This document shows positions 52-63,669 of a stretch of 64,000 nucleotides of DNA, piece after piece (the stretch's first letter is position 1; the number at the start of each line of letters is the position of its first letter). This DNA is from an uncultured Gemmatimonadaceae bacterium. GTDB lineage: Bacteria > Gemmatimonadota > Gemmatimonadetes > Gemmatimonadales > Gemmatimonadaceae. Location: contig CAWHHI010000012.1 of assembly GCA_963829055.1 (NCBI GenBank), positions 160,001 through 224,000 on the forward strand, read 5' to 3'. Made by a program: the position numbers and the translations under genes. A model generated the notes under the pieces. The model saw nothing but the letters and a program-made list of their open reading frames with translations. It was not told the origin of the DNA and made no database searches.

Positions 52-1449
52 TCAGGGCGAGCCTTGCCGAGCTCGCTCGATCCACAGCAAAGCGGCGCTG
101 AGCGGTGCATCGCGACCCGCCGACAGGTCCGCTCGGTTCAACGGAACGAGTTCATCGGGCCGCACGCCAGTACCCTCGATACGTGACCCGTCCGCGGCCA
201 CGAAATCGGCGATGACGTGCATGAGGACATCGCCATTCGGCAGGCGCGTCGCCATGGCTGGTAGTGCCTGCCCCGCGGTGCGTTCCCCGAAGACGCGCGC
301 GCGTCCGAGCGCCTGCAACGCCGCGCTGAACATCTCCGTGGTGCTCGCGGACATTCCGTCGACGAGAATCGCGAGTGGCCGGCTGTAGGGTTCCACCGCA
401 ACGCCGGCTTCCGTTGCGCGACGAGGGTTCGCGACGAATCGCATCTCGTCGCCGCGTGTCCTCATCGTGCCCAGCGTGAGCGGCTCACCAAGGAAGTGGC
501 CGGCCGCACCCATCATCATCCCGGCCACACCGCCCGGATTTCCACGAAGGTCGAGCACGATGCCGGCGCAGTCGCGAGAGGCTTGCACCGCTCGATCGAA
601 CGCTGGCATGACCGGTGGCAGCCAGTAATCGAAGCGGATGACGCCGACGCATCGTCCGTCGGACAACGTACGACGACTCGCGTCGAACGCGGTGGCGAGC
701 GGCGGCAGATTCCCGAATCGAACGAGAGGACCGCGCAGCGAATCCCGCGCGAACGTGACGTCGCGTGTCACGCCGGCACCATCGTGCGCGATCACGCGCA
801 CCGGAGTGCCTGGTGCTCCGCGAAGGACGTGCATTGCCCCGACGATGGCCGACAACCGTTGTGCCGGGAGCGTGTCCGCGTCGCCTAACGCTGCAATGGG
901 ATGGTCGTCGATGCGCTCGACGATCCATCCGGGCGCCACGCCAGCACGCCGCGCTGCTCCGGCGCTATCGACGCGCCACACGACCACGCGCTGATCGACG
1001 ACCCGCAGCGCGAGACCCGACGAGCCTAACGACTCGTCGGCCGTCGCCTCGCTCGCACCCGCCGGCACCGATTGCGCAGGCAGCACTGAGAAGTGCGATT
1101 CGCCAATGCGGCTGAGCATGTCGGTAATGACCGTGCGCAGTGCGCTGTCCGTTGCGGCATGTACGGCACGCGGACGCAGTTCACGGCCAACGGCTGGCCA
1201 GTCGACACGCGTCACGCCGCGGTATTCGAGTGAGCTTCCTACGGTTCGCCACACGGAATCGAACGTAGCAGTTGCGAGCGCGGAGTCGAACGGCGCCCGA
1301 GATCCGGTATCGGAGTCTATGGCGAGGCGCGTCGGCGCCCTCAGTGCCGGGGCATGGCCGTCGGCGCTTCCTGTCTCGACAGGCGCGAGCCACGTGCTCG
1401 CGAATAGCACGACGGGTGCGACGATCGAAGCGCGGACGAAAGCGTACAT
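52..1449 (-). CDS. S41 family (C-terminal processing type) peptidase with PDZ-like region, exported
   Basis: Signal-peptide-like N-terminus; motifs VLDLRGNPGG, LVDGMSASTTE, GERTAG and IEGTGVRPD typical of S41 proteases. Confidence 0.85.
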   Translation of the reverse strand: MYAFVRASIVAPVVLFASTWLAPVETGSADGHAPALRAPTRLAIDSDTGSRAPFDSALATATFDSVWRTVGSSLEYRGVTRVDWPAVGRELRPRAVHAATDSALRTVITDMLSRIGESHFSVLPAQSVPAGASEATADESLGSSGLALRVVDQRVVVWRVDSAGAARRAGVAPGWIVERIDDHPIAALGDADTLPAQRLSAIVGAMHVLRGAPGTPVRVIAHDGAGVTRDVTFARDSLRGPLVRFGNLPPLATAFDASRRTLSDGRCVGVIRFDYWLPPVMPAFDRAVQASRDCAGIVLDLRGNPGGVAGMMMGAAGHFLGEPLTLGTMRTRGDEMRFVANPRRATEAGVAVEPYSRPLAILVDGMSASTTEMFSAALQALGRARVFGERTAGQALPAMATRLPNGDVLMHVIADFVAADGSRIEGTGVRPDELVPLNRADLSAGRDAPLSAALLWIERARQGSP

Positions 1450-1709
1450 TGCGAACCGCCGAGGAAATGCCCGAGAGGGACAGGTGGAGTGCGACGAACA
1501 CAGGGCATCGTCTCAGCAGCCGTCAGCAGTGAAGACGAGCAACCGGTCGTGTCGTTCACGCAGCGCGCACCATTTTGGCACACAGGGCGCGAATTGTGCT
1601 CTCGCTCACCAGCCGACGCGTGACAGGCGCCCTCGCGCGCGCGTCCAATCCCTGACCGGCGCTGCCTCCGTCACTTGCGCCGTGTCGGCCGCCACAATTA
1701 GAACACATC

Positions 1710-2252
1710 ATGCAAAGCACCCGACGTTCATTCGCCGCCCTGCTCGCGGCGGTCATCCTTGCCGTGCCCTGCACGTCCGCTCGCGCGCAGACCCTTCAGC
1801 CGGGCACGCGCGTCCGCGTGCAGTCATCCCAGGTCGTTGCGCCGATCATCGGCAGTTACCAAGGGATGCGGCGTGATACGCTGGTCGTGATCGAAGACGG
1901 CGCCGGCGCACAGGTATGGACGTTCACCAGCTCGGCGGTCGACCGCCTGGAAATCAGCGCTGGAATGAAAGGCCGGAATCGCAAGCCGACGGCGCGCTGG
2001 GCGCTCATAGGTGCCGGCATCGGGGGGGCTGCCGGTTGGCTTACGGCGGTGATCCTGGAAAACGCCAGCAGCAATCAGGAATACAACGACGTCCTCAGCG
2101 CCTTGATCGGCGCCGGCGCGGGCGCTGCATTCGGTGCCGTGTATGGCTCTCACAAGCTGGAGGAGCATTGGACGCCGGTACCGATGCCTGCTCGTGTGGG
2201 AATCCTGCCGACCAGGAACGGCATCAGGTTCTCACTGTCTGCCTCGTTCTGA
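1710..2252 (+). CDS. Exported hypothetical protein with glycine-zipper-like hydrophobic segments
   Basis: Signal peptide ending ARA-Q; GAGIGGAAG and GAGAGAAFG segments; C-terminal SLSASF. Confidence 0.7.
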   Translation: MQSTRRSFAALLAAVILAVPCTSARAQTLQPGTRVRVQSSQVVAPIIGSYQGMRRDTLVVIEDGAGAQVWTFTSSAVDRLEISAGMKGRNRKPTARWALIGAGIGGAAGWLTAVILENASSNQEYNDVLSALIGAGAGAAFGAVYGSHKLEEHWTPVPMPARVGILPTRNGIRFSLSASF

Positions 2253-2887: not shown

Positions 2888-4031
2888 ATGATCGAGCCTG
2901 GCGCGACAATTGGGATTCTCGGCGGCGGCCAGCTCGGACGGATGACGGGCATGGCTGCGCGCTCGCTCGGCTACGATGTGCACGTGCTCGACCCGGACCC
3001 GAACTGCCCCGCGTCGGTGATCGCGAGCCGCACCGTCGCCGCTCGCTTCGATGATGCGGACGCCGCGGCCTCGCTTGCCGAACGGTGCGCCGTCGTGACG
3101 CTCGAGATCGAGCAGATCGGTACGGCGTCACTCGCAGCGGTCGCGGCTCTCGCGCCACTGCGTCCGAGCGGAGCCGCCGTTCACATCATTCAGGACCGCA
3201 TCCGCCAGAATCAGTGGCTCGAGGCGCAGGGGTTCCCCGTCGGCCCGTTTCGCGCGGTGTCATCGCTCGACGAGAGCATTGCGGCGTTCGAGGCACTCGG
3301 CCGCTGCATCTTCAAGTCGACGAGCGGCGGTTACGACGGGCGCGGGCAGGTGCGCGTCGCGACGGTCGACGAGGCGGCCGCCGCGTGGGAGTCGCTCGGG
3401 GACTCGCCCGTGTCTCGTCGAACAGTTTCTCGACGTGGAGATCGAGATCTCGATGCTCGTAGCCAGACGCCCTGCGGTCACTGGCGTGGCGGAACCCGAG
3501 ACCGTCCTGTTCCCGCCGTCGTTCAACTATCACAGTCAGGGCATTCTCGACTGGTCGATGCTTCCGGCGTCGGTTCCGGAGCTCGTGGCCGGGCGCGCCG
3601 ACTCGATCGCGCGCGGCATCGCGCACGCGTTAGGCATCGAGGGGCTCATCGCGGTCGAGCTGTTCCTGCTGGCGGACGGCCAGCTGCTGGTGAACGAGCT
3701 CGCGCCGCGGCCGCACAACACGTTTCACTCCACGGAGCGCGGCTGCGCGACGAGCCAGTTCGAGCAGCTGGTGCGCGCTGTCTGCGATCTTCCGCTCGGC
3801 AGCACCGAAATCGTGCGCCCGGCCGCGATCGCGAATCTGCTGGGTGATCTGTGGAACAACGGCGATCCGGACTTCGCCGCGGCGCTTCGTGTGCCGACGG
3901 TCCGGCTGCACCTCTACGGCAAAGCGTCGGCGCGACCTGGCCGCAAGATGGGCCATCTCTCGGCCGTCGGAGAGACCGCCGACGAGGCAATGGCTCGCGT
4001 GCTCCGGGCGCGAGACGCAATGCGGCGGTAG
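2888..4031 (+). CDS. purK: N5-CAIR synthetase (frameshift near 3400)
   Basis: IGILGGGQLGRM and GGYDGRGQ in one frame; NELAPRPHN, TSQFEQ and RPGRKMGH in the next frame; directly follows purE. Confidence 0.93.
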
Positions 4032-4067
4032 CAACGCGCCGTCGCGCTGCGTCCTGTCACCGGCGCG

Positions 4068-4808
4068 TTAGGCGCCGACCTCGATCACCCGAAACGGTGT
4101 CTGCTCCGGCCAGCACTTCTTGAGCAACGGCATCGCGACGTTGTAGACGGGAATGCCGGAGCTCGTTCTCCCTTCCAGCGCCCCGTTGTGTGCATGGCCG
4201 TGGATGACGGCCGTTACGGGGTACCTGGCGAGCGGCTCCTCGAGCCGGCTGCTGCCGAGATATGGGAAGATCTCGAGCGGCTCCCCTTCGACGGTGGCGC
4301 GTATCGGCGAGTAGTGCAGCAAGGCCACGCGATGCGGCGTGCGCAACCGGGCGAGCGCGCTCTCGAGCTTGAACGCTTCATTGACGGCTTCGCGCACGAA
4401 CAGCTTGATGATGTCTTCGCCCCAGGGTCCAAGCGCACCGCGTCCGAAGCCGCCACAGAATCCCTTCACGCCCGCGAAGCCCACGCCTTGCAGTTCACAG
4501 GCGTCGCCGTCGAGCACCGTAACGCCCGCGTCCGTGAGGATCTGTCGGACCTCGTCTGCCTTCCCCGCCTCGAAATCGTGATTGCCCAGCACCGTTACGC
4601 ACGGAACGCGGAGTGCTGTTCCCACATCACGCGCGAGCACGCGCGCCTCCTCGGGCAGGCCGTAATCGGTGAGGTCACCGCACATGACGAGCACATCCGC
4701 TCGCTCGGATACCTGCGCAAACACAGACGCGAGCGCGCCCTGCCCCGTCTTACTGACGTGGATGTCGCTCATCGCCGCTATGCGCACGATTCCGGGGGTC
4801 ATTGCCAT
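4068..4808 (-). CDS. Calcineurin-like metallophosphoesterase
   Basis: Metal-binding motifs SDIH, CGDLT, LGNHD, LLHYSP, HGHAH. Confidence 0.92.
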   Translation of the reverse strand: MAMTPGIVRIAAMSDIHVSKTGQGALASVFAQVSERADVLVMCGDLTDYGLPEEARVLARDVGTALRVPCVTVLGNHDFEAGKADEVRQILTDAGVTVLDGDACELQGVGFAGVKGFCGGFGRGALGPWGEDIIKLFVREAVNEAFKLESALARLRTPHRVALLHYSPIRATVEGEPLEIFPYLGSSRLEEPLARYPVTAVIHGHAHNGALEGRTSSGIPVYNVAMPLLKKCWPEQTPFRVIEVGA

Positions 4809-5747: not shown

Positions 5748-8700
5748 CTAGTCGCGAAGCTCGGCATCCTCGCGGACGCGGTCGGTCAGCTCGCCACGCG
5801 ATGTCACACCGAGTTTCGCGAAGACATTCGAGAGATGCGTGCTCACGGTTCTCGACGAAATGCTGAGCGCCGCTCCGATCTCCTTGTTCGACTTGCGCGC
5901 CGCCACGAGCCGCGCAATCTCGCGTTCGCGCCCGGTCAGCGAGCCCGCGCCCTCGACGATGGCTTTCGCGGGTGGTCGCGCGCCGAGCTCACGCAGCTGT
6001 TCGCGTGCGCCCCGCAACTCGGTCTCGGCACCGATGCGCGCGAACACGTCATGGGCGCGCCGCAACTCGCGCATCGCGCCTTCGCGATCGCCACGCGCGG
6101 CGAGCAACTGTGCGAGGTTGCGCCGAATGCGCGCGGCATTGAATACGAATGGAACCGCGTCCAGCTGGTCGGCCGCCGAGCCGAGCAGTTCGACCGCTCG
6201 CTCGGTGTCGTTGTCTCTGAGTCGCGCGACCAGCGCATCGCTCGCGATCGCCCAGGCGCGACCGAGCGCGTGGCCCATCCGCGCAGAGTCGGTTCGCAAC
6301 CGTTCCCCGTGCCGCTGCGCCCGCTCGAAATCCTGCAGCCACAACGCGGCCTCGATGATGATCGGCATGAGTCGGTGCACCGACCACGCGATGTACCCGG
6401 AGCTCTCCGCCAGCGCGACGCCAGCTTCGCCTAACGCGATCGCCCGCTTGTAGTCTCCGGTCGCGAGCGCATACGCGGCCATCCCCGTGTGCGCCGGGAC
6501 CACGGTGTTCACGTCCACCGTGCGGTGCGCGGTGTCCGCGGCACCCGACATCGACCAGCTCTCCTCGAACAGTGCTTTCGCTTTCTCCAGCTCGCCGCGT
6601 CCGAGATGCATGAGCCCAGTCCACACGAGGAGTCGCGGCAGCAACGTTCGCGCGCCGACGGCCCGCGCGACGGGTATCGTGCGCTCGGCGAGCGAGAGCC
6701 CGGCGTTCCAATCGCCGATGCCTGACGCGTACTCGATCGACACCTCGTTCGTCCACACCCCGAGCACGGGAGAACGGAGCTCTTCGGCGATCCGTTGCGC
6801 TTCACTCACGTGCCGGGCAAGGTCGCCCGCGTTGCCGGTGAGCCCCGACAGAACCGCAATGCCCCAGTGTGCCGCCCACTCGACCGCGCGCTCGTTGGCC
6901 GAACCCGCAAACGTGATCGCTTGTTCGCCGTGCAGTCGCGCCTCTGCGCCACTCCCAATGAACATGTAGAGCTGCATCAAGGCGCGATGAATTCGCGCGA
7001 GCATGCCGGCGTGCTTCAGTCGCTCCGCGATCTCGAGCGCCGCTTGCAGCTCGGTGAGTGCATCGTTAGGCCGGCCGAGCTCCTGGAACGCGGCAGCACG
7101 AGCGATACGCACGCGGGCCGCGAGTCGCTCGTCGCCGGCGCGCGCCGCCGCCTCGAGTCCAGCGGCATAGTGGGCAAACGCATCATCGTGATGCCCAGCC
7201 CAGAAGCTCGCGAGGCCCAACCTCCGCTCAATGGATGCGATACGGCCTGCGTCGTCGCGCTTTCGCGCGTGGTCGAGCGCACGCTCCCATAGCGCGCGCG
7301 CCGTATCGTATTCGCCGTTTCGCTGTCGGGCTCTCGCCAGATCCTCGACGAGGGTCGCCACCTCGTCCGGTGACGGGGCATCGCGCTCGGCGCCCGCATG
7401 CCGGTCGAGGATATCGAGGGCGCCGCCAAGATAGCTCGCCGCTTCGCGCGTCGCGTACGTCGCGAGCGCGGCGCGGCCGGCGCCGGCCAGGTAGCGCGCC
7501 GCCTTTGGCGCGAGCTCCGGCGATGCCGCGCGCGAGAAGTGAAATGCCAGCTCGTTCGCGTGCGCATCCGACGAGGCGCCGTACAATCGCTCGAGCGCCG
7601 TGCCCAGGCGCCCGTGAAGCAAGCGTGTACGCGCTTTTCCGAGCTCCGCGTAGAGCGTCGCCTGGAGCGTGGGATGCGTGAAGTCGTATTGGAGAGCGTC
7701 CGCGACATCCGCGTCGACGAGCACTCGCTCGCGACGCAGCTCGTCGACTGCTTCGACCAACGACGACGGCGCGAGATCGCTCACGGCTTCGAGCGCGTCG
7801 TATGAAACACGCGAGCCAAGCACCGCCGCGAGGTCGGCGACGATTCGTGCGGTGAGCGACAGTCGGTCGAGCCGCGCGACGATCGCGTCACGCACGGTGC
7901 GCGGTAAATCGAGCTCCGTCACATCCCAGCCCACCCAGCGTCCCTCGTCGCGATGAAGTCTCCCCGAACCGATGAGGGACTTCAGCATTTCCTCGACGAA
8001 GAACGGGTTGCCGCGTGTGCGCTCGTAGAGGAGCGCGGCGAACTCACGGATGCTCGCCGGGTCCATCCCGAACACGTTACCCAACAGCTCATCGCTCTTC
8101 GCTCGCGACAGCGGCGTGAGTCGCAGCACGCTCGCGATTCCCAACCCGACGAGGGAACGCTCCGTACTCGCGAGCGTGGCGTTGGAATCGCGCTGCGCCT
8201 CGTTGTACGAGCAGAGCACGACAATGCGGAGTCCTGCGAGTTGCCGCGCCGTGAAGTGCAGCAACTCGAGCGACGACGCGTCGGCCCACTGCAGATTCTC
8301 GAGCGCGATGAGGAGCGGCCGCTTCGCGGCAAAGCGCCCGAGGAACTGGCTGAAGTTCCAGAGCAGCCGCGCCTTCGTGTCTGACGCAGCACCATTGGCT
8401 TGTGCCCGGGTTTCTGAATGCAGGTCGAGCGCCGGGAACAGCCGAGCGAGCTCCGCCTCGCCTCCGCGCGACAGCACGGTCAAGGTGCCGCGGTCGAGCG
8501 CCTTGAGCACCGGGAGGAGCGCATCCGCGAACACGGCGTATGGCACTCCCGTTTCGACGGGATATGCCCGGCCGACCGCCGTCGACCAGCCGCGCGAGGT
8601 CGCTTCTTCCACGACCGACTCGGCCAACCGCGTCTTCCCGATTCCTCCTTCTCCCGCGAGGAAAATCGTCGATGATGTTCCACGCTCGGCCGCATCGAGC

Positions 8701-8786: not shown

Positions 8787-9037
8787 GCCGTCACGATCGG
8801 CCAGCCCGCTGGCCCGCCTAACGTGAGCGCAGACCATGCGGCCGCCCCGCGGCCACGCAGGTGCCCGCATGTGCTGAGAGGTCGCGCGAGTCGCCGACTA
8901 CCGAAGGTCATCGAGGCCTAGGGGACACAGGGACGCACACTGCGCTGCGCGACTAATCTGCACCAGCTCCAACTCGCGACCGGACTGCGGTCCTATGTTA
9001 TGCTCATGACGACACTCGCCGCTAGAAGCTGGGATGC

Positions 9038-11581: not shown

Positions 11582-11718
11582 TGCGTTGTGGAGATCTGGT
11601 TGGGGTCCCTAACGATGGGCTGGACCGCCGATTCCGGCGTCCCGTGGGCACAGAACGCACTCACGATTCGTGCCGCCTCCGACTGGTCCGCGGAAGTCCG
11701 GCCCGCCATTTTCCGCAC

Positions 11719-14057: not shown

Positions 14058-14098
14058 GCCTCGCGTATCGTTAGGTGGTCGTTAGGTATGACAGAACG

Positions 14099-14135: not shown

Positions 14136-14165
14136 GCCATCACGTTACCTAACGACGACCGACTG

Positions 14166-21697: not shown

Positions 21698-21741
21698 CGA
21701 TTGCGGATTCACCCCGCCTGATGATCTCGAGCACCGCGCGC

Positions 21742-26072: not shown

Positions 26073-26305
26073 TCTAGACCGATGTCAGTGGACCCGAAAC
26101 GTTGCTTGCACGGCGCGGACCCCGCTCGAACATGTGCAACTGTCCAGCCTGGTCCTCGGCAGGGAACGCGAGCGCTTTCACCTTGGCGCTCCAACCCAGC
26201 TCATGTCCAATAGGGGAAGCGACGTGCTACGTCACGCTTCCCGCTCCGCCGTCAGGGATGCCGTCCTCAGGGGATACGGTCCTCGGCGCGCGACGTCTCG
26301 CGCGC

Positions 26306-27231: not shown

Positions 27232-27263
27232 GAAAAGCCCCGGCCAGCTGGCCGGGGCTTTTC
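27232..27263. terminator. Perfect 32-bp palindrome, probable bidirectional terminator after the OmpA-family gene
   Basis: GAAAAGCCCCGGCCAG|CTGGCCGGGGCTTTTC. Confidence 0.85.
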
Positions 27264-27309
27264 CTAACGAGTGCCTTCCAGATGGAAGCGCGCTAGTCAG
27301 TCCGTGCAG

Positions 27310-43323: not shown

Positions 43324-43349
43324 CGCATCACCACGCGAGCCGCGGGCGG

Positions 43350-45242: not shown

Positions 45243-45473
45243 CTAGTCGTTAGGCTCGTCGGCGTCGTGCCGGCGGCGGGCGGGCAGCACGCGGAAGATC
45301 GCACCACCGTGGAGGGGCGCATCGGGGGCGGTCGGAAGGCCGCGGCTGTCCGCGATCACACGTTCGCCGACAGCAACTTCGTCGGCCGCGGCGGCGTTCC
45401 AGGCGCGCACCGCGTCCAGCGCCGTCGAACCCGGCGGAAGGTCGAGACCCGTAGCGTTGACGTAGACTCGCAT
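45243..45473 (-). CDS. Small protein, possibly beta-grasp (ThiS/2Fe-2S-like) fold
   Basis: MRVYVNATGLDLPPGSTALDAV resembles a beta-grasp N-terminus; tightly packed in the operon. Confidence 0.6.
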   Translation of the reverse strand: MRVYVNATGLDLPPGSTALDAVRAWNAAAADEVAVGERVIADSRGLPTAPDAPLHGGAIFRVLPARRRHDADEPND

Positions 45474-52460: not shown

Positions 52461-55300
52461 ATGGACACAATCTTGTCGGATCTCGGGCTCGCGGTGCGGG
52501 CTCGTTTCGTACGTAGCATTCTCTTCGTCGCGTGTGTGGCTGTTCCGTCGACGCCAATCGCACTCTCCGCGCAGCAGCCCGCTGCGCCCGAAGCCGCGCG
52601 CACGGGGCGCATCGTCGGCAGAATTCTGGACGCCGCGACCGGTCAGGGCCTGAGCGACGTCGGCGTGCAGATCGTCGGCACGACGTTAGGCACCTCGTCC
52701 GCGATCGAAGGCCGATACACCGTGGTGAACGTTCCCGCCGGCACTGTGACAATTCAGGTGCGACGGATCGGCTACGCACCGAAGACCGTCACTGGCATCC
52801 TGCTCGAATGCCGGCCAGACGCTCGAGCAGAACATCACGCATGCAGCCCGCCACGGTGCAACTGCAGGCGATGCAGGTGACTGCGGCCAACGAACGCGGC
52901 ACCGTGAACGAGGCACTGGACCAGCAGCGCACAGCGACTGGCATCGTGAGCTCCGTGACCGCAGAGCAGATCACGCGGAGCCCCGACAGCGACGCCGCGC
53001 AGGCCGTACAGCGGGTGAGCGGGGTGACGGTCCAGGATGGGCGCTATGTGTTCGTCCGCGGGCTCGGAGAGCGGTACACGACGGCGTCGCTGAATGGAGC
53101 GCGAATCCCGAGTCCGGAGCCGGAGAAGCGCGTGGTGCCGCTCGACATGTTTCCGTCCGGGCTTCTTCAGTCGATCACGACGTCCAAGACCTTCACGCCC
53201 GATCAGTCGGGCGATTTCAGCGGCGCGCAGGTCGACATCCGCACACGCGAGTTCCCGGCACGGCGGCAGATCACGTATTCGCTGACGACCGGGGTCAACT
53301 CCGGCTCTACCGGCTCGAACATCCTGACCGCTCCACGTGCCGGAGGCGAGCGGTTGGCCTTCGTCGGGACGAAGCGCGACCTGCCGTGGCTCGTCGCGTC
53401 CGTCGGCAACTTCCAGCAGATCAATCTCAATCAGGGCGACAAGAATCTCCTGATCAACACGTTCCGGAACTCGTGGGCGCCAGAGACCGAGCGCGCGTCG
53501 CCTAACGTCACAGCGTCCATGTCGGTCGGCGGGAACGACGCCATGCTCGGGCACCGCGTCGGCTATGTGGCGTCCGGGACATACTCGCTCGTGCAGGACC
53601 AGAAATCCGAACAGACGCGTGCGCTCGCTGATCGCGGCACCACCTTCGGCGAGACACGCGAGATCGACCACTTCGACGGTTCCACAGGGAGCTCGTCGGT
53701 GCTGTGGGGCGGACTCGTCAATCTGAGCACGCTCGTTGGCACGAACACGCGACTCATGTTCAACAACACGTACAACCGGACGGCGGACAACGACGCCCGG
53801 TCGGAGACGGGGTCCCTGGAAAACGAGGGCGTCCGTGCGCACATCGACCGGCTCCAGTACGTCGAGCGCAGCGTGCGGTCGAATCAGCTCGCCGGCGAGC
53901 ACCAGGTGGGAGACCGGCACAAGGTGGATTGGGCAGCGACGTCGTCGGCCGTCACGCGCGATGAGCCGGATCGCTCCGAGTTCGTGTCCGTTCTCGAACG
54001 CACGACGCCTAACGGGCCCGAGTCCTCGCTGTGGCTGAACACGGGCAACCAGGGCGCGGTCCGTACGTTCTCCAAGCTGGACGAACAGAGCAGCGAGGGG
54101 AAACTCAACTACCAGCTCACGTTCCCGTGGCGTGGGCGCGATAACCTGGTGAAGGTCGGTGGGCTCTACCGCGCCACTGACCGTGACGCCGACTCGCGCG
54201 CGTTCAGCATCAGCGCTGCGGCAGCGCCCTTGTCGGTCCGCGAGCTGCCGCCGGAGGAGCTGTTCGACGGGCGCTTCAGCCAGGGCGCGTCCAACGTGTT
54301 CGACATTGCTCCGTTGGGTCAGGGCGGTGCGTACGACGCGCGCGATCGGTTGACGGCGAGCTACGCCATGACGGAGATCGGCATCACGGACCGAGTTCGC
54401 TTCATTGGCGGCGCGCGGTTGGAGCTCGACAACGTCCGTGTCAACGCCGTGTCCACACTCGGGTCTCCGGTGTCGACGGACAAGTCGTGGACGGACGTGC
54501 TACCGTCAGCGGCCGTCAACGTTAGGCTGACGGAGGCGCAGAGCGTCCGTCTGTCGGTGTCCCGCACGCTTGCTCGCCCCGAATACCGCGAGCTCGCCCC
54601 GATCGCGAGTCGCGACGTGATTGGTGGCGACAACATCGAAGGGGACCCGAATCTCGAGCGTACACTCATCTCGAACGCCGACGTTCGCTGGGAGTGGTAT
54701 CCCAACGCCGGTGAAGTCGTGAGCGTGGCGCTGTTCGGCAAGCGTTTCGAGAAACCGATCGAGCGCGTGTATCGGCCCGTGGGAAGCGGATCGCGCACTG
54801 TGTTCTATCTGAACGCGGCAGGAGCCGACAACTACGGGATCGAGCTCGAGCTGCGGAAGAATATGGGTATCCTCGCGCGTGCGCTCGAGCCACTTACCGC
54901 CTTCACGAACGTCACGGTGATGGAGAGCAAGATCGAGCTCGGGGAGACGACCGCGAGCGCCACGAACAAGAATCGCCGGATGGTCGGGCAGTCTCCGTAT
55001 GTCGTTAACGCAGGACTCACGTACGCTCCGCTTCGCGGATCCACGAGCGCGACGCTGCTCTTCAATCGCGTCGGCGAGCGCATCGACGCCGCAGGCGATC
55101 AGCCCCTACCTGACGTGGTCGAGCAGGCGCGCACCGCACTGGATTTCTCGGTGCACTTCCCGCTGCTCTCCTCGCTCAGTGGACGCTTCGACGCCAAGAA
55201 TCTGCTCAATGATCCATACAAGACCGTGCAGGGCTCGGTCACGCGCGAATACTATCGCACCGGCCGCGTGCTCCAGCTTGGACTCGTGTGGCGTCCGTAG
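52461..55300 (+). CDS. TonB-dependent receptor with N-terminal carboxypeptidase-regulatory-like domain (frameshift near 52810-52840)
   Basis: GRIVGRILDAATG N-domain; plug SDAAQAVQRVSGV...VRGLGERY...VPLDMFP; barrel strands, KNLLN, C-terminal LGLVWRP. Confidence 0.92.
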
Positions 55301-55564: not shown

Positions 55565-57331
55565 ATGCTCCTTTCCGGACGTAGGATTTCGGCGTTGACG
55601 CTCGCGATGGCGACGTTCGCGCTCGCGGCGTGCAGTGACGATGACCCCACCGAGCCCACTGTTCCGCCGGTGCTTGGCGCGTCGGCCGCTCCGAATCCCG
55701 CGGCGACGACCAGCAGCATCATCGTGACGTTTCAGAGCCGAACTGGCGACAACAGCTACAACATCGAACGTGCGGAAGGCGCGACGGGCGGCACGTTCGC
55801 GCAGGTAGGCACGGTACCAGCTCCGGCAGCTCCGGTGACGGTCACGTACACGGACAATGCGTTGAAGCTGAACACGACGTACCGCTATCGCATCTTCGCG
55901 GTGCGCGGCTCGCAGACGAGCACCGCGTCGTCGGAGTTTACCGCAACGACCGCAGCGGCAGGCGGCGCCGGCAACGTCGATGTGACCGCCGATATCGCGA
56001 CCAATACGACGTGGACGAACGACAAGACATACACGCTCAAGGGCTTCATTCACGTCGCCAGCGGTGCCACCCTAACGATTCAGCCGGGCACCAAGATCAT
56101 GGGCGACTTCGCCACGCTCGGATCGTCGCTGTTCATCCTCCGCGGCGCGAAGATCAACGCCGTCGGGACGGCCGATGCGCCGATCGTCTTCACGTCGTCA
56201 CGCGCGGTGGGTCAGCGCCAGCCGGGTGACTGGGGCGGCCTGATCATCATCGGCAATGCGAAGATCAACCGGAGCGGCACGGTTTCGGTCGAAGGCACCG
56301 GAACCGATGGCTCCGCCGTGGTGAGCGGCAAGAACTACACGGTTAATTATTCTGGCGGGACCGCGGACGATGACAACAGCGGCACCCTCAGCTACGTCCG
56401 AGTGGAGTTCGCTGGCTTCGCGCCCGCGCCCGATCAGGAGCTCAACTCGTTCACGTTCGCGGCCGTCGGAAGCGGGACGCGCATCTCCTACCTCCAGTCG
56501 ATGGCCGGTCTCGACGACTCCTACGAGTTTTTCGGCGGCGGCCTCGTTGGCGATCACCTCGTATCGTACGAATCGGGCGACGATCACTTCGACATGTCCG
56601 AAGGCTTCAGGGGCAAGCTGCAGTACCTGATCGCGTTCCAGTCGACGCAGCTGACGCCGCGCACCGGTTCGGGGTCACTCGCGAGCGATCCCGAAGGGAT
56701 CGAGAACGACGGCTGCAACGGCAGCGGCTGCGACCTCGGTTTCAACTCGGCGCCATTCACGATTCCGGTGATCGCGAACTTCACGCTCGTCGGCACGGGC
56801 GACGCGGCCACGTCCGGTACCGCAGGCGGACTTGGCATGATGGTTCGTCGTGGCACCGGCGGGTACTACGTGAACGGCGTCATCGCTCGCTACCCACGCG
56901 GCGGCGTGAGCCTTCGCGATGCAGACACGTACACCCGCGCTGGCGCGACGCCCATCACGGACTTGGCGACCGCCGACCTCGCGATCAAGAACGTCCTGTT
57001 CACCGAGAACGCGACGATCTTCCAGGGCGCGAACGGCACGAACGTCCAGAACTCGCTCGACCTCGCAGGCAACTCGCTCGTGAGCAGCACCACGGCAACG
57101 GCGGCACTGTTCACAGCGTTTCCTGCGACGGTGAGCGGCACGACGACGGCGGCGGCATTCGACTGGACGCCCGCAACGGGGGCACCGATCACGACGGGCG
57201 GACTCGCGACGTTTACCGGCAAGCTCGCGACGGCTGCAGGGACGACGGTCGCCGGAACGGCCTATCTCGGAGCTGCGCAGCCGGGTGGCACGAAGTGGTG
57301 GCAGGGATGGACGATCTACGCGCGCAACTAG
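55565..57331 (+). CDS. Lipoprotein with FN3-like domain and Gly/Asp-rich (probably beta-helical) domain, TBDR partner
   Basis: Lipobox LAAC; FN3-like YTDNALKLNTTYRYRI; LTIQPGT, APIVFTS, GDWGGL, DNSGTLSYVRVEFAG, DDSYEFFGG. Confidence 0.85.
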   Translation: MLLSGRRISALTLAMATFALAACSDDDPTEPTVPPVLGASAAPNPAATTSSIIVTFQSRTGDNSYNIERAEGATGGTFAQVGTVPAPAAPVTVTYTDNALKLNTTYRYRIFAVRGSQTSTASSEFTATTAAAGGAGNVDVTADIATNTTWTNDKTYTLKGFIHVASGATLTIQPGTKIMGDFATLGSSLFILRGAKINAVGTADAPIVFTSSRAVGQRQPGDWGGLIIIGNAKINRSGTVSVEGTGTDGSAVVSGKNYTVNYSGGTADDDNSGTLSYVRVEFAGFAPAPDQELNSFTFAAVGSGTRISYLQSMAGLDDSYEFFGGGLVGDHLVSYESGDDHFDMSEGFRGKLQYLIAFQSTQLTPRTGSGSLASDPEGIENDGCNGSGCDLGFNSAPFTIPVIANFTLVGTGDAATSGTAGGLGMMVRRGTGGYYVNGVIARYPRGGVSLRDADTYTRAGATPITDLATADLAIKNVLFTENATIFQGANGTNVQNSLDLAGNSLVSSTTATAALFTAFPATVSGTTTAAAFDWTPATGAPITTGGLATFTGKLATAAGTTVAGTAYLGAAQPGGTKWWQGWTIYARN

Positions 57332-57504: not shown

Positions 57505-58122
57505 GTGCGTCCGTCTCGAACCGCGCGAGCGGCATCCGCTGACTCCGCCACCGCGGAGCAGCGCGCCGAGTCGGAGCGCGCGCGACAGGACTCCATCGTG
57601 CGGGCGCGGCCCGGGTACATCGTCGACAGCATCCTCCCTGTCGAAGAACAGATTCGGCGATTCCAAGCGACGCTTGGCACACGCCCAGGGGGATTTTCTC
57701 ACGGCGCGGCCACGCGAAAGGCACTCGTCGCGCAGTTCGTTCGCGCCATCGAGCGCAACGACACGACAGCGCTCACCCAGCTGGTCGTCGACCGCGACGA
57801 GTTCGGCTACCTGGTCTACCCGACGTCGCCTAACGTGGCACCGCCCTACCGCCAGGCGCCCGATCTGGTGTGGCTCATGCGCTCCGCCGGCACGGAGAAA
57901 GCCGTCACGAGATTAATGGCCCGATTCGGCGGCCGACCGCTTGGATTTGTAGGGCACTCCTGTGCCACACCGCTCGAGCGCCAGGGCGAGAACACCGTCT
58001 GGTCTCGCTGCGTCGTTCGCCGTGCCGGAGACGGAGGCAACACGACTTCGCTACGGATGTTCGGCTCGATCATCGAGCGCGGCGGCCAGTTCAAGTTCCT
58101 TTCCCTGAGCAACGGACTCTGA
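57505..58122 (+). CDS. Hypothetical protein; true N-terminus probably upstream and frameshifted
   Basis: Natural-looking ORF (PGYIVDSILP...FGSIIERGGQFKFLS) co-oriented within the cluster. Confidence 0.65.
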   Translation: MRPSRTARAASADSATAEQRAESERARQDSIVRARPGYIVDSILPVEEQIRRFQATLGTRPGGFSHGAATRKALVAQFVRAIERNDTTALTQLVVDRDEFGYLVYPTSPNVAPPYRQAPDLVWLMRSAGTEKAVTRLMARFGGRPLGFVGHSCATPLERQGENTVWSRCVVRRAGDGGNTTSLRMFGSIIERGGQFKFLSLSNGL

Positions 58123-58261: not shown

Positions 58262-59476
58262 ATGCGTCGACTATCCGGATTGCTCTGCTGCGCCGTCACG
58301 ATTGCAGCAGCCGCTCTCTCGAATACCTCGCTCTCCGCACAGGACACCACTCGAACCACCCGTCCCGATACGGCGCGGCAACCCGCCGACACGCAACCGA
58401 CACCGCCCCCGCCGGCCCCCGCTGCGTCGCTGCCATTCGACTTCTCCGGCATCATTTACGCGAACTACCAGTACGGTGGCGTGAAGGGCAATCGCTCCGT
58501 CAATCGCTTCGAGGTCGAGCGCGCGTATCTGACCTTTCGCGCGACACCGGGCGAGCACTTTTCCATTCGCATCACGACGGACCTGTACCAGCAGCGCGAT
58601 ACCACGCGCGACCAGTACTACCGCGGGTGGGCCATCCGCGCGAAGTACGCGTACGTGCAATACGACTTCATCCGCGGCATCGGCGATGAGCTGAAGGCGA
58701 ACGTCAGGCTCGGCCTGTTACCGACCGTGATCATCGAACAGGAGGAGCAGTTCTGGCAGCGAGGCCTCTCGCAGGTGGCTATCGAGCAGAACGGGTTCTT
58801 CTCGTCGTCCGACGCCGGGGCGGCGACCACGTTCACCCTGCCGCGCAAGCGCGGCGAGTTCTACGCCTCCATCACGAACGGGTCAGGGTACGCGTCGCGT
58901 GAAACGGACCGCTTCAAGGACTACGCGGCGCGCCTCACGCTCACGCCGCTCGCGAACACGTTCGGATTCTGGAAAGGCCTAACGATCTCGCCGTGGTATT
59001 ACAATGGTGATCGCGCGAGCGACTTCGCCCGTCGCCGGGGCACGGTCGCCGCTGTGTCGAGCGCACTACGAAAAGACCGAGCGGGCGTGTTCATTGGCCT
59101 CCGCGATCCGCGAATCGTCCTCGGAGCCGAGCTCGCGCAGAAGTGGGACGTCTTTGAATCGGCAGACACCACGCGTGACATAACGCCGACGGCGGTCGAG
59201 CGAACGGCACGTGTAATCTCGCTCCACACGACGATTCGCCCGCTGACGTTCATCAACAGCGCGCCCAACTGGCCTGTCGCCATCGTGCTCCGCGCCGACG
59301 ACATCAAGCCGAACATCGATAGCGACCCGTACACCCGGAACTACATCGCCGGTCTGCAGTGGGAGTTCAACCGGCGAACGTCGTTCACGTTCGACTATCA
59401 GAACCAGGTGCCGAAGGACGGCAGCACGGCTGTGGACAACAAGGTGTACTTCCTCCACGTCATCGCCGCGTTCTGA
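58262..59476 (+). CDS. Outer-membrane beta-barrel, putative phosphate-regulated porin
   Basis: Signal peptide; NRFEVERAYLTF, KYAYVQY amphipathic strands; terminal Phe; directly upstream of pstS. Confidence 0.75.
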   Translation: MRRLSGLLCCAVTIAAAALSNTSLSAQDTTRTTRPDTARQPADTQPTPPPPAPAASLPFDFSGIIYANYQYGGVKGNRSVNRFEVERAYLTFRATPGEHFSIRITTDLYQQRDTTRDQYYRGWAIRAKYAYVQYDFIRGIGDELKANVRLGLLPTVIIEQEEQFWQRGLSQVAIEQNGFFSSSDAGAATTFTLPRKRGEFYASITNGSGYASRETDRFKDYAARLTLTPLANTFGFWKGLTISPWYYNGDRASDFARRRGTVAAVSSALRKDRAGVFIGLRDPRIVLGAELAQKWDVFESADTTRDITPTAVERTARVISLHTTIRPLTFINSAPNWPVAIVLRADDIKPNIDSDPYTRNYIAGLQWEFNRRTSFTFDYQNQVPKDGSTAVDNKVYFLHVIAAF

Positions 59477-59515
59477 ATCGTGATGCAGCCGATCAACCTA
59501 ACGAGACATCATCGC

Positions 59516-60550
59516 ATGCGAAAATTTGCAAAGCTGGCCGTCCTCTGCCTGGTGCCAGTCGCACTGAGCGCACAGGCTGACCTCACTGGGGCGGGCGCTA
59601 CGTTCCCGTATCCGATCTACTCGAAGTGGTTCGCCGAATACGCCAAGACGGGCGTGAAGATCAACTACCAGTCCATCGGATCGGGCGGTGGTATCCGCCA
59701 GCTCTCCGACGGCACGGTCGACTTCGGCGCATCGGACTCGCCGATGACGGACGGTGAGATGCAGAAGGCGAAGGGTGGCCGCGTGCTGCACTTTCCGACG
59801 GTCATCGGCGCCGTCGCGATCGTGTACAACGTGCCTGGCATCTCGAAGCCGCTCAACCTCGATGGCGGTACGGTCTCCGACATCTTCCTCGGCAAGGTTC
59901 GTAAGTGGAACGACGGCAAGATCGCCAAGCTCAATCCCGGCGTCTCGCTGCCCGCGCGCGACATTCTCGTGGTCCATCGCTCGGATGGCAGCGGCACGAC
60001 CTACATCTTCACTGACTTCCTGTCGTCGGCGAGCAAGGAGTGGCTCGCGGGACCGGGTCGGTCGAAGGAGGTGGCGTGGCCAATCGGCCTCGGGGGCAAG
60101 GGCAACGACGGCGTTGCCGGTCAGGTCAAGCAGATTCCCGGCGCCATCGGGTATGTCGAGCTGGCGTACGCGCGGCAGAATAACCTGGCCTTTGCCGCCA
60201 TCAAGAACGCGGCTGGCGCCTTCATCACGCCGTCAGTGGAATCGGCGACGGCCGCGGCAGACGGTGTCGCCGCGAAGCTGAACCCGAAGAGCGACTATCG
60301 CGTGTCGATCGTCAACGCGCCCGGTGCACAGGCGTACCCGGTGACGTCGTTCACGTGGCTGCTGGTGTATCAGGATCAGACCGATCCGATCAAGGGGAAA
60401 AAGCTCGTGGACTTCATGCGCTGGGCCCTAACGAGTGGCCAGGCGTCCGCGGCCGCGCTGGACTATGCGCCACTTCCGAAAGTGATCGCCGATCGCCTCG
60501 TCGAACGGTTAGGCACGATCCGGATGTCCGGGGCGGCGGCGACCCAGTAG
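59516..60550 (+). CDS. pstS: Phosphate ABC transporter binding protein, soluble type
   Basis: GAGATFPYP, SIGSGGG, DFGASD, HRSDGSGTT, GYVELAYA; signal peptide without a lipobox. Confidence 0.96.
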   Translation: MRKFAKLAVLCLVPVALSAQADLTGAGATFPYPIYSKWFAEYAKTGVKINYQSIGSGGGIRQLSDGTVDFGASDSPMTDGEMQKAKGGRVLHFPTVIGAVAIVYNVPGISKPLNLDGGTVSDIFLGKVRKWNDGKIAKLNPGVSLPARDILVVHRSDGSGTTYIFTDFLSSASKEWLAGPGRSKEVAWPIGLGGKGNDGVAGQVKQIPGAIGYVELAYARQNNLAFAAIKNAAGAFITPSVESATAAADGVAAKLNPKSDYRVSIVNAPGAQAYPVTSFTWLLVYQDQTDPIKGKKLVDFMRWALTSGQASAAALDYAPLPKVIADRLVERLGTIRMSGAAATQ

Positions 60551-61757: not shown

Positions 61758-62740
61758 GCGAAGTCGCTCGCCCGCTGGTCACCACGCGTCAGGACGACAC
61801 CGGGATCGCGGCACGCATCGAAGGCTCGGCCATCGGCGATACGGTGTATCGCTGGATGACGACGGCCTTCGCGTTATGCGTCCCGGTCTTGTTGCTGCTC
61901 ATTGCGCTCGGGGTCGGGACCGCGGCGTGGCCGGCGTTCAAGGCATTCGGCTTCGGGTTTCTCACCTCGAGCGACTGGGATCCGCCGCATAACGTGTTCG
62001 GCGCCGCGCCGGCGATCTACGGGACGATCATCTCCGCGATCATCGCGCTCGTGATCGCGACGCCGCTCGCGCTGGGTGTCGCGATCTTTCTGTCGGAATT
62101 CGCGCCGTCCTGGCTGCGTCAACCCGTCGCGTTTCTGGTTGACCTGCTCGCCGCGATCCCGAGCGTCGTCTACGGGCTGTGGGGCATCTTCGTTCTGCAA
62201 CCGGTGCTCCGGGATCGCGTCATGCCGTTCCTCGCAGGACTGCCGGTGATCGGGAAGTCGGCGTTGTTCGAGGGCCCGGCATACGGCCCGAGCATGTTAG
62301 GCGCCGGCCTCATCCTCGCCATCATGGTCCTCCCGTTCATCTCCGCCGTGTCGCGCGAGGTGCTGATGGCCGTTCCTCGCTCGCAGCGCGAGGCTGCGTT
62401 GGCGCTGGGCGCCACCAAGTGGGAGATGATCGCGGACGCGGTTGTGCCCTATGCACGATCGGGAATCATCGGCGGCATCATCCTTGGTCTCGGACGTGCA
62501 CTCGGCGAGACGATGGCGGTCACGATGCTGATCGGCAACGTCCACCAGATCTCGGCGTCGCTGTTTGCGCCCGGGTACACGATGGCGTCGCTGATCGCCA
62601 ACGAATTCGCGGAAGCGACGGGCGATCTCCACCTGTCCGCGTTGATGGGCGTCGGCGCTGTGCTGTTCGTGCTCACGTTGATCGTCAACGCCATCGCGCG
62701 CTGGCTCGTGTGGCGCGTGTCGCGTGAGGCGCGTTCGTGA
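61754..62740 (+). CDS. pstC: Phosphate ABC transporter permease
   Basis: LLAAIPSVVYGLWG, EAALALGATKWE, GRALGETMAVTMLIGN, IANEFAEA. Confidence 0.97.
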   Translation: MSEVARPLVTTRQDDTGIAARIEGSAIGDTVYRWMTTAFALCVPVLLLLIALGVGTAAWPAFKAFGFGFLTSSDWDPPHNVFGAAPAIYGTIISAIIALVIATPLALGVAIFLSEFAPSWLRQPVAFLVDLLAAIPSVVYGLWGIFVLQPVLRDRVMPFLAGLPVIGKSALFEGPAYGPSMLGAGLILAIMVLPFISAVSREVLMAVPRSQREAALALGATKWEMIADAVVPYARSGIIGGIILGLGRALGETMAVTMLIGNVHQISASLFAPGYTMASLIANEFAEATGDLHLSALMGVGAVLFVLTLIVNAIARWLVWRVSREARS

Positions 62741-63669
62741 CGACGTCAACGATGCCGGTCAAGCCAGGCAATCGCGGACCTCGCCCGTCCGGCGTTCAGC
62801 GTGCCGCGGCGGAGCGAACCCGCACGACACTCGGGCGGCGGCGTGTCGTGAACGTCGTGATGATCGGCGTCACGATGCTCGCCGCCGTCGTGGCCACGCT
62901 GCCGTTGATCTTCATCCTCGGCCATCTGATCAGCGCCGGCGCGTCGTCGATCAATCTCGCGTTCTTCACCGAGATCCCGAAGCCGCCGGGCGAAACCGGT
63001 GGCGGCATGGCGAACGCGATGGTCGGCACGCTGGTGCTGATCGGCGCGGCGTCGGCCGTCGGCCTGCCCGTGGGAATCGGCGCAGGGCTCTACCTCGCCG
63101 AGAATCGAGGGACGCTGCTCGCGAACGCCGTGCGCTTTCTATCGGACGTCTTGAACGGTCTGCCGTCGATCGTCATGGGCATCTTCGCGTGGCAGTTCCT
63201 CGTGAAGCCCATGGGCAAGTTCACGGCGCTGGCCGGTGGCATCGCGCTCGGCGCCATGATGATTCCGCTGGTGACGCGCACGACGGAAGAGATGATCAGC
63301 ATTGTGCCCGTATCGCTCCGCGAGGCTGCGCTGGCGTTAGGCTATTCGCGCTGGCGCACGTCGCTCGTCGTGGTGTTGCGGACTGCATTGCCGGGCATCG
63401 TCACCGGGGCGCTCGTGGCCGTGTCACGCATCGCCGGCGAGACGGCGCCGCTGCTGTTCACCGTGTTAGGCAATCAGTTCTGGTCGTTGTCGCTCCGCGA
63501 ACCGATTGCGGCGCTCCCGCTACAGATCTTCAATTTCGCGATCAGCCCGTACGACGCGCAGCATGCGCTCGCGTGGGCTGGTGCGCTGGTCCTCATTGGT
63601 ATTGTCCTCATCATCAGCCTTGCAGCCCGTTTCGCGACACGCTCCCGATTCGGCCGTGGTGGCGACTGA
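62737..63669 (+). CDS. pstA: Phosphate ABC transporter permease
   Basis: GGMANAMVGT, GLPSIVMG, REAALALG, RIAGETAPLLFT, AWAGALVL. Confidence 0.97.
   Translation: MTTSTMPVKPGNRGPRPSGVQRAAAERTRTTLGRRRVVNVVMIGVTMLAAVVATLPLIFILGHLISAGASSINLAFFTEIPKPPGETGGGMANAMVGTLVLIGAASAVGLPVGIGAGLYLAENRGTLLANAVRFLSDVLNGLPSIVMGIFAWQFLVKPMGKFTALAGGIALGAMMIPLVTRTTEEMISIVPVSLREAALALGYSRWRTSLVVVLRTALPGIVTGALVAVSRIAGETAPLLFTVLGNQFWSLSLREPIAALPLQIFNFAISPYDAQHALAWAGALVLIGIVLIISLAARFATRSRFGRGGD

Follow-up and report, generated by a model that had tools for sequence, protein, structure and literature searches.

The cyanobacterial word HIP1 (GCGATCGC) is a palindrome tied to GATC/CGATCG methylation, and Chi is among the most over-represented octamers in Escherichia coli. 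Self words of the kind represented by the DNA uptake sequence (DUS) and the uptake signal sequence (USS) are, to our knowledge, found in only two proteobacterial families; the USS consists of a 9-bp core with informative AT-rich flanks. Passages of Treangen et al. 2008 (PMC2397512) give a mean DUS distance of about 1.15–1.5 kb in Neisseria, describe the DUS as strongly conserved within slightly more diverged surroundings, and report similar results for the USS. In parts of another paper (PMC3868556), the minor pilin ComP is presented as the DUS receptor. Here we describe an octamer, GCCTAACG, and the heptamer CCTAACG which it contains, in a stretch of 64,000 nucleotides from the genome of an uncultured Gemmatimonadaceae bacterium (positions 160001–224000 of its contig C12), which we call the window, as well as in the rest of this genome and in its relatives.

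The abundance of the word, the equality of its strands, its lack of polarity, its spacing, its conservation and its dialects match those of the DUS and, more briefly, those of the USS. Like the DUS, it is a short non-palindromic word present about once per kb on both strands and unpolarised. It is conserved in place within slightly more diverged flanks, and it has lineage dialects which differ at a single position. The DUS is missing from foreign DNA; in our genome, the three large stretches without the word are foreign, but they look like chimeric contig ends and not like islands. The word differs from the DUS in having 8 bp instead of 10–12 bp and in being mostly intragenic, with no excess of inverted pairs or terminators. 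No ComP-like reader was found, and the phylum is another one. A mostly intragenic position in several frames, a density of about one copy per kb and the absence of polarity are shared with the USS, which differs in its informative flanks (our word has no information beyond its 8 bp); the word is also AT-centred in a genome of 66% G+C. HIP1 is likewise a hyperabundant octamer which runs through coding sequence and has a patchy lineage distribution, but GCCTAACG is asymmetric, it is not its own reverse complement, and the genome has no matches to three main DNA methyltransferase families. Chi and KOPS are polarised, while the Gemmatimonadaceae word is not.

Abundance, placement and conservation of the word

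The genome analysed (G000) has 7,784,024 bases in 20 contigs and is rated 86% complete and 4% contaminated. The G+C content of the window is 66–67%. The closest relatives of the Lon protein encoded in it all belong, by their record titles, to metagenome-assembled Gemmatimonadaceae or Gemmatimonadota from soil-type samples.

The window contains 52 copies of CCTAACG, 34 on the forward strand and 18 on the reverse strand. They form part of a set of 63 CCTAAC cores, 11 of which lie outside the heptamer, and the complete octamer is found 34 times. A preliminary description, made from the letters of the window, had given these same counts and coordinates, all of which are confirmed by our recount. 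It had also claimed an excess over base composition. In 100 dinucleotide-preserving shuffles of the window the mean number of heptamers is 3.02 (standard deviation 1.77, maximum 8), so that 0 of 100 shuffles reach 52, and the excess holds genome-wide under Markov null models. The whole genome contains 6391 heptamers, found on all 20 contigs and equally divided between the strands (3154 and 3237). There are 5004 copies of the octamer, and the expected numbers are 131, 102 and 258 under Markov models of order 1, 2 and 3, respectively. The excess over the order-2 expectation is 49-fold for the octamer and 26-fold for the heptamer, with mean gaps of 1.51 kb and 1.19 kb. GCCTAACG and its sub-words rank top at k = 6, 7 and 8 under Markov orders 1–3. 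A ranking based on the maximal-order Markov model conceals the word, since the enrichment extends to every one of its sub-words; models of lower order reveal it. Most CTAA tetramers in the genome (7103 of 8933) are found inside CCTAAC.

The sequence logo of the copies shows G (0.79) or A (0.12), followed by CCTAAC and then by G (0.90) or A (0.07), which may be written as R-CCTAAC-R. At position 8 of the word, G comes first genome-wide (5004 copies) and A second (435 copies, 10x). Information is near zero outside positions -1 to +7, which indicates a bare word and not the core of a longer repeat. A dispersed repeat of the type known as repetitive extragenic palindromes or miniature inverted-repeat transposable elements is ruled out: the flanks have no information, and 67% of the copies are found in called open reading frames (ORFs). 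Several single-mismatch neighbours of the word are depleted: GACTAACG is found at 0.22x, GTCTAACG at 0.20x, GCTTAACG at 0.27x and GCCTAAKG at 0.17–0.25x. This word family is real, strong and undescribed. A search of open-access full text with four spellings of the word gave nothing on it, and the match found was unrelated.

Genes were called with a crude caller of our own, based on codon log-odds, which gives 7507 ORFs covering 78% of the genome; their starts are unreliable. The genic copies are found in both orientations (2060 sense and 2194 antisense), and 2137 copies lie outside called ORFs. All four stop-free frames are used: the word is read as x-L-G in 1640 cases, P-N in 1260, L-T in 800 and V-R in 554. 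When synonymous codons are shuffled within genes (n = 5), 349–387 heptamers are obtained, compared with 4260 observed (about 11-fold), and 152–169 octamers, compared with 3379 observed (about 20-fold). Of all TTA codons in called coding sequence, 66% (1954 of 2948) lie in the core, as do 810 of 4168 CTA codons and 577 of 6802 AGG codons. The word also supplies 320 of 938 TAA stops and 246 of 1939 TAG stops. It is found where its placement is cheapest, which points to a force acting at the level of DNA and checked by coding constraint. We have here a DNA-level signal of the HIP1/DUS class, which is not protein-driven. The preliminary description had proposed as much: the frames, the two orientations and the codon shuffles bear it out, as does the share of TTA, CTA and AGG codons within the motif, which it had named as a check.

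The distribution of the word along the chromosome is uniform and unpolarised. The correlation between the strand skew of the word and GC skew is r = -0.17 (137 bins of 50 kb); bins with positive skew contain 1069 forward and 1157 reverse copies, those with negative skew 1698 and 1684. In contig C16 the sign of the skew flips near 550 kb, while the strand of the word does not. Density is uniform over the contigs. Close neighbours are avoided: only 6.4% of the gaps are shorter than 200 bp, compared with 15.5% expected from an exponential distribution, and 2.3% are shorter than 100 bp, compared with 8.1% expected. A control heptamer of equal frequency, CGAGCAG, shows no such avoidance (19.6% of gaps below 200 bp, 17.7% expected). 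A uniform spread is what the preliminary description had associated with DUS or HIP1. The clustered, matS-like signal that it had also considered is excluded by the uniform spread and by the over-dispersion of the sites.

Five congeners could be aligned to the window at about 77% DNA identity. The heptamer is kept in place in 71 of 142 site-by-congener comparisons (50%), compared with 18% for all heptamers; the congeners are kin, and these trials are not independent. The number of sites kept in each genome is 18 of 33 in G001, 23 of 38 in G002, 20 of 33 in G005, 9 of 27 in G004 and 1 of 11 in G003. The last two, where the word is less conserved, are the two genomes with about half the genome-wide word density. 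The best-kept class corresponds to x-L-G (TTA) sites. In congeners which lack a site, the central T-A-A mostly contains a G or a C. Two or three synonymous changes separate the two versions of several sites, such as GTC-CGG to GTT-AGG at position 37020 or CCGAGCG to CCTAACG at 46682, and such gains run towards rare codons. In four of the five congeners, the identity of the 150-bp flanks is 0.74–0.76, compared with 0.77 at random places (numbers are small). The flanks are thus, if anything, slightly more diverged than random places, and slow evolution of the surroundings does not explain why the word is conserved.

Distribution among relatives and dialects

The word is clade-coherent, but patchy within the family. 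The seven genomes of the window's genus all contain it, with 2501–5112 octamers, and the richest genome of all, G014 (5.1 Mb, 6360 octamers), belongs to another genus. A few genera have 170–600 copies, and most are below the reversed control word. Of 301 genomes sampled evenly over the phylum, 14 have at least as many copies of the word as of the reversed control, according to our own reading of the table: 11 of them belong to the window's family and three to one genus of a sister family. Elsewhere in this sample, the word is typically about ten times rarer than the reversed control. Some genomes flagged as unpublished enter our tallies only as word-poor members of the denominators, and none of our claims depends on them: G013, then G090, G208 and G129 in the phylum survey, and G361 and G334 in the dialect survey. 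The preliminary description had suggested such a survey of related genomes.

The genus g46 is split: two of its genomes have 3896 and 4141 copies (G245 and G302), compared with 66 in a third one (G298). In G298 the dialect GCCTSACG is not in excess either, with 514 copies against 641 for its control. We have also constructed a quick tree of Lon from 80 loci and the window, with a midpoint root and with word densities taken from loci of 3–22 kb. Word-rich loci form clades, with four of four loci in the window's genus, nine of ten in a second clade and three of four in a third clade nested among word-poor lineages, and the branches starred in this tree force at least three changes. Density among relatives ranges from 0 to about 1.9 copies per kb.

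In other genera the hyperabundant word is a sister dialect, GCCTSACG, where S stands for C or G. Its counts and those of its control are 4641 and 655, 3738 and 573, 3631 and 463, 3413 and 557, and 3288 and 594. In genomes of the A dialect, which corresponds to GCCTAACG, it only reaches about 2.4 times its control. Locus L027 shows CGCCTAAC-N. Near relatives are present in soil and rhizosphere samples: the share of words found in sequencing runs is 0.43–0.62 in 19 runs and 0.25 in the 20th.

We should also note that CGATCGC, the core of HIP1, is among the top heptamers in some word-poor relatives (L010, L028, L052, L056 and L030), for example with 19 copies in 5.6 kb and with 26 copies in 7.9 kb. 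Different iterated words may exist in further lineages of the family. In addition, many Gemmatimonadaceae loci contain short tandem arrays of 7–8 bp units, and the unit differs by species (CCCTGAA, CCACGAT, CTGCTTT and GCCAATA, among others). They are found at L026:4571-12092, L065:3090-16163, L057:15-12659, L079:5190-12766, L013:12014-12153 and L047:17182-17314, often as arrays which face each other in inverted orientation in the space between genes; we saw none of them in the window.

Uptake, chromosome organisation, repair and integrons

The proposal which we favour, with a probability of roughly 0.4, is that GCCTAACG would be a DUS/USS-like self tag, specific to some lineages of Gemmatimonadaceae and kept by biased uptake and recombination. 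Within the transformation machinery (type IV pilus, ComEA, ComEC), a receptor at the surface or in the periplasm would prefer double-stranded DNA which bears the word, and fragments from kin carrying it would enter the cell and recombine more frequently. Word-bearing alleles would then replace those that lack it, a molecular drive that would continue until balanced by the coding cost. Such a process would account for a density of about one site per 1.2–1.5 kb and for the cheapest placement of the sites (synonymous TTA in x-L-G, stops and spacers). It would also account for the small benefit to be expected when another site is already present less than about 200 bp away, and for changes in the receptor which would appear as dialects (GCCTAACG and GCCTSACG). 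The genome contains a ComEC gene (C16:789233-790018) and a type IV pilus cluster (C12:396-403 kb) with pilM, pilN, pilO, two major-pilin paralogues and a minor pilin; with three further pilin-like genes, there are at least five pilin-like genes in all. Uptake was one of the options of the preliminary description, and it is the best fit to our data, although we did not find a protein that would act as reader, and word-poor relatives have competence genes as well.

Several observations weigh against uptake. ComEC (40 of 41 relatives) and HHH_3/ComEA-like proteins (41 of 41) were rejected as discriminators, since they are nearly universal in the order and are also found in word-poor relatives. 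The same applies to two unassigned ORFs of the pilus cluster (305 and 382 amino acids), rejected as readers because they are present in 37 and 36 of the 41 relatives. No competence or pilus gene tested tracks the word among these 41 genomes, in which short minor pilins were not profiled. The only HHH_3 match in G000 is a weak one of 81 amino acids; the strong matches in relatives are found in proteins of 750–1490 amino acids, which we take to be probably Tex-like. Our search of open-access text found no report of natural transformation in Gemmatimonadetes. Copies of the DUS and USS occur as close inverted pairs in terminators; our word shows no excess of such pairs, and close pairs are depleted in all four combinations of orientation. 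All the properties described above would also fit another reader acting at a scale of about 1 kb. Finally, the identity of the word with the R box of integrons, described below, is left unexplained by uptake, except as chance or a side effect.

The genomic portrait is DUS/USS-like, with at least two dialects, in a soil phylum dominated by uncultured bacteria, and the origin of such words is a long-standing question. Near relatives with and without the word, as in genus g46, constitute a natural experiment for finding the reader and for distinguishing drive from selection. Uptake, if confirmed, would suggest that natural transformation accounts for much of the gene flow among bacteria which are abundant in soil.

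Among the alternatives, an origin in chance, composition or sequencing artefacts is already refuted by our controls. Single-base indels do exist in G000 relative to short-read contigs, but the shuffles never reach the observed count, the Markov and codon-preserving nulls are exceeded, and the word is equally or more dense in many other, independent assemblies of relatives. The sites also stay in frame, and in congeners synonymous codons are aligned with them. An artefact absent from accurate short reads had been mentioned in the preliminary description; contigs from four runs (four studies) cover the window, and no listed difference falls in a site: 0 of the 40 substitutions listed, out of 296, which is weak support. 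A polarised signal for recombination or segregation (Chi, KOPS/AIMS), another of its options, may be considered as excluded. Such a signal would agree with the rank of GCCTAACG as the most over-represented octamer, but there is no strand bias with GC skew, no switch where the skew changes in C16, and the 20–49-fold excess is far beyond that of Chi. Biased mismatch repair or biased mutation, similar to HIP1 or to very short patch (VSP) repair, with or without methylation, is improbable. The depletion of several single-mismatch neighbours and the way in which the word runs through coding sequence, as HIP1 does, would be expected from it; nevertheless, the depleted neighbours all hold the generally avoided CTAA/TTAG context, and a local repair bias does not predict the avoidance of sites below 200 bp. 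In the 7.78 Mb of G000 (at 86% completeness) we have found no matches to the methyltransferase families PF00145 (C5), PF01555 (N6/N4) and PF02384 (N6), nor to Vsr (PF03852). The same searches were positive in control genomes: 9–12 of 14 for the methyltransferase families and 3 for Vsr. The only adenine methyltransferase gene of the D12 class (C8:134570-135701, which is L144:6570-7701, minus strand) is split by a frameshift over two frames. It has no adjoining restriction gene, and is located between genes for a CoA-transferase and for an extracytoplasmic function (ECF) sigma factor. This gene does not follow the word: it is present in 14 of the 41 relatives, including the word-poor G007, G009, G013, G017 and G023, and was not found in the word-richest G014. 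The lack of matches to these families, the pattern of the D12 gene and the short-range repulsion make a HIP1-/VSP-like origin unlikely, and the methyltransferase or repair option of the preliminary description is weakened accordingly. The main rival is an array of binding sites for a nucleoid-associated or chromosome-structuring protein, spaced at about one per kb, which selection for the function of the chromosome, and not a transmission drive, would maintain. We consider it unlikely, in spite of several points in its favour: even spacing with short-range repulsion, uniform density, conservation in place, dialects, which are expected if the specificity of the protein shifts, and the fact that competence is not required. 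On the other hand, each of about 5000–6400 sites would need a selective value high enough to prevail over codon usage, even where the codons are the rare TTA, CTA and AGG, and this is the classical argument for a drive. Besides, close relatives live without the word (66 copies in one genome of g46 against 3896 and 4141 in the others), and no candidate protein has been identified.

The link with integrons requires separate consideration. In attC sites, two inverted R boxes with the consensus RYYYAAC / GTTRRRY enclose an imperfect hairpin of 50–130 nt. The word (GCCTAAC/GTTAGGC) fits this R-box consensus and matches, letter for letter, the boxes found in attC sites of the clade itself. G000 contains an integron at C20:200400-209000 (L143), whose intI gene (208008-208985, minus strand; 265.7 bits for a cut-off of 265) is upstream of the cassettes and in the same orientation. 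Its attC sites read GCCTAACGC ... ACGTTAGSY, and at least three are clear (205102, 205717 and 207189). The ORFs in its cassettes include DUF4440, DUF1801 and DUF1990 proteins. In word-poor relatives, most copies of GCCTAACG are found in cassette arrays; for example, 20 kb of G027:C95 contain 19 GCCTAACA and 23 CGTTAGGC boxes in attC pairs. Large cassette arrays are found at G027:C95:1-24000 (L106) and G025:C3:1-8000 (L107), with an attC pair every 500–600 bp or so, about 23 pairs per 20 kb. IntI is above the family cut-off in 24 of 41 relatives, many of them word-poor: integrons are common in the order. A two-strand scan of 120 R''...R' pairs in G000 gave 11 strong-hairpin, attC-like hits, several of them at the same place on both strands. 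We have also detected isolated attC-like hairpins in G000 far from intI, at C9:93485, C20:163143, C20:192696, C20:890462, C18:97494, C16:66005 and C11:626475; possibly, these are lone cassettes which have landed at other chromosomal positions. Titles in the open-access literature on integrons, Gemmatimonadetes and attC showed nothing related.

The words might be R-box half-sites of IntI, acting as attG-like landing pads, as decoys or as material for the formation of cassettes. Apart from the identity of the boxes, the preference at position 8 for G and then A is like that of R' and R'', and according to parts of a preprint (10.1101/2022.09.11.507474) a GWT core is enough of a target in the genome for IntI to be able to place cassettes there. 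Nevertheless, IntI is very unlikely to be the reader of the word. Its presence is irrespective of the word, and no intact copy was found in the word-rich G002, G004 and G014. The 11 attC-like hits may be compared with 6391 words: more than 99% of the copies are single words in ordinary genes, without a partner box or a hairpin. Sites arise by synonymous point changes without indels, and do not look like insertion scars. Moreover, the dialect does not co-vary with the R box. In four of the four S-dialect genomes with intI loci that could be read (G041, G336, G370 and G342), the integron sites keep CCTAAC, while the genes carry GCCTSACG; in G041, which has no assembled cassette array and 110 scattered copies of GCCTAACG, this comparison corresponds to a single site beside intI. 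There is no IntI match in G083, and no sites can be seen in G333 because of the shortness of its contig. The R-box identity, which we noticed post hoc, may be due to chance. Only about 16 of 8192 heptamer pairs agree with the consensus. The identity is probably not causal, but it means that every cassette in A-dialect lineages carries the word. A combined scheme, in which Gemmatimonadaceae would have their own uptake specificity with dialects and the uptake word of the GCCTAACG lineages would be the R' box of attC, so that all cassettes released into soil would be pre-tagged and uptake would be coupled to cassette capture, seems to us a long shot. Uptake specificity outside Proteobacteria would be, as far as we know, a first. 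If the scheme were true, the resident integron would be supplied by transformation, with a preference for cassette DNA in single-stranded form, a route which works in Vibrio according to parts of PMC12614218.

Assembly quality and copies of the word in the window

There are three large stretches without the word in G000, all of them at contig ends: C6:5440-55038, C11:1-44055 and C6:591808-623330 (loci L135-L142), with a G+C content of 0.70, 0.66 and 0.73, respectively. They hold second copies, 47–60% identical, of FtsK, AroC (chorismate synthase), FolD, PepA and TrpG. The presence of second copies of single-copy housekeeping genes and the position at contig ends led us to reject genomic islands, and the stretches are probably chimeric joins or contaminant DNA. 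In these metagenome-assembled genomes, the word can serve as a sensitive marker for DNA that is foreign or mis-assembled, and here it would have exposed three chimeric contig ends. A DDE transposase is found at C6:665-1984. Contigs from independent runs are one base shorter at window position 38394 (in all four runs), and also at 37883, 40109, 40111, 41258 and 42494. At these positions the assembly is likely to have one base inserted in error, which breaks reading frames, and residual indels may explain part of the low coverage by called genes.

The 52 copies in the window are described below by reading frame. They are octamers of the form GCCTAACG unless another form is indicated, and "kept x/y" means that the heptamer is in place in x of y aligned congeners. 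The copies in the x-L-G frame include two in ORF 52-1449(-): 884..890 (+; GCG-TTA-GGC, A-L-G; kept 3/3) and 1025..1031 (+; TCG-TTA-GGC, S-L-G; kept 3/3). The reading GCG-TTA-GGC (A-L-G) is also found at 3628..3634 (-; kept 3/4) in ORF 3435-4031(+), at 6430..6436 (+; kept 3/5) in ORF 5748-8786(-), at 19531..19537 (+; kept 3/4) in ORF 17499-20357(-), at 43603..43609 and 43855..43861 (both +; both kept 3/4) in ORF 43350-44096(-), and at 63335..63341 (-; kept 3/5) in ORF 62737-63669(+). ORF 17499-20357(-) has another copy at 19387..19393 (+; ACCTAACG), which reads GCG-TTA-GGT (A-L-G; kept 0/4). At 46168..46174 (+), the reading in ORF 45681-46505(-) is CCG-TTA-GGC (P-L-G; kept 4/5).

The lon gene (35374-37347, +) has three copies in three different frames. 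The first one, at 36020..36026 (-), reads TCG-TTA-GGC (S-L-G) directly after the Walker A motif GPPGTGKT, and is kept 4/4. The second one, at 36801..36807 (+), reads CGC-CTA-ACG (R-L-T; kept 3/4). The third one, at 37020..37026 (-), reads CCC-GTT-AGG (P-V-R; kept 0/4); congeners have GTC-CGG or GTC-AGG, which indicates that the site was gained through synonymous changes. The preliminary description had read all three correctly.

The P-N frame (CCT-AAC) is used at 7064..7070 (-; kept 0/3) in ORF 5748-8786(-), at 28794..28800 (-; CCTAACG, not an octamer; kept 0/1) in ORF 28420-29133(-), at 33352..33358 (-; kept 0/4) in ORF 33005-33418(-), at 45248..45254 (-; kept 2/5) in ORF 45243-45491(-) and at 47122..47128 (-; kept 0/5) in ORF 46475-48397(-). 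It is also used on the forward strand, at 53501..53507 (+; kept 1/3), for which P-N had already been given, and at 54008..54014 (+; kept 1/2), both in ORF 52841-55300(+), and at 57829..57835 (+; kept 2/2) in ORF 57505-58122(+).

Copies read as L-T (CTA-ACG) include two which are heptamers but not octamers, 24546..24552 (-) in ORF 23115-25175(-) and 25755..25761 (-) in ORF 25179-26072(-). The others are all on the forward strand: 50601..50607 (ACCTAACG; kept 4/4) in ORF 50302-52020(+), 56071..56077 (CCCTAACG; kept 2/2) in ORF 55565-57331(+), 58978..58984 (kept 0/5) in ORF 58280-59476(+), and 59497..59503 (ACCTAACG; kept 3/3) and 60427..60433 (CCCTAACG; kept 2/5) in ORF 59480-60550(+). The V-R frame (GTT-AGG) is found at 23865..23871 (+) in ORF 23115-25175(-), at 32577..32583 (+; kept 2/4) in ORF 32469-32747(-), at 46682..46688 (+; kept 0/5) in ORF 46475-48397(-), where congeners have CCGAGCG or CCGAGGG, at 51939..51945 (-; CCTAACG, not an octamer; kept 0/4) in ORF 50302-52020(+), and at 54520..54526 (-; kept 1/2) in ORF 52841-55300(+).

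By our own crude gene calls, some copies supply a stop codon. The copy at 4066..4072 (-; kept 2/5) provides the TAA stop of ORF 4068-4808(-), that at 26305..26311 (+) the TAG stop of ORF 26306-27151(-), and that at 29160..29166 (-; kept 2/2) the TAA stop of ORF 29162-29932(-). These three had been proposed as stops in the preliminary description (at 4068, 26306 and 29162), together with the copy at 43319..43325 (+), which is outside called ORFs and cannot be tied to any of them. A further copy at 42923..42929 (+; ACCTAACG) overlaps the stop of ORF 42924-43268(-).

Three intergenic copies, all of them CCTAACG but not octamers, are close together: 14069..14075 (-; kept 2/2), 14080..14086 (-; kept 0/2), which is 11 bp from the previous one, and 14148..14154 (+; no congener aligned). 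The remaining copies are outside called ORFs. Octamers are found at 8817..8823 (+; no congener aligned), 21028..21034 (+; kept 3/4), 21514..21520 (+; kept 1/2), 22641..22647 (+), 22689..22695 (+) and 52684..52690 (-; kept 3/3). Other forms are found at 38613..38619 (+; ACCTAACG; kept 0/4) and 38660..38666 (+; CCCTAACG; kept 3/4), and heptamers which are not octamers at 11608..11614 (+; kept 0/2), 21693..21699 (+) and 27263..27269 (+). Tandem repeats in the window showed nothing relevant to the word. According to Rfam, the only RNA gene in the window codes for a tRNA-Lys with anticodon TTT, at 22973-23045 (-).

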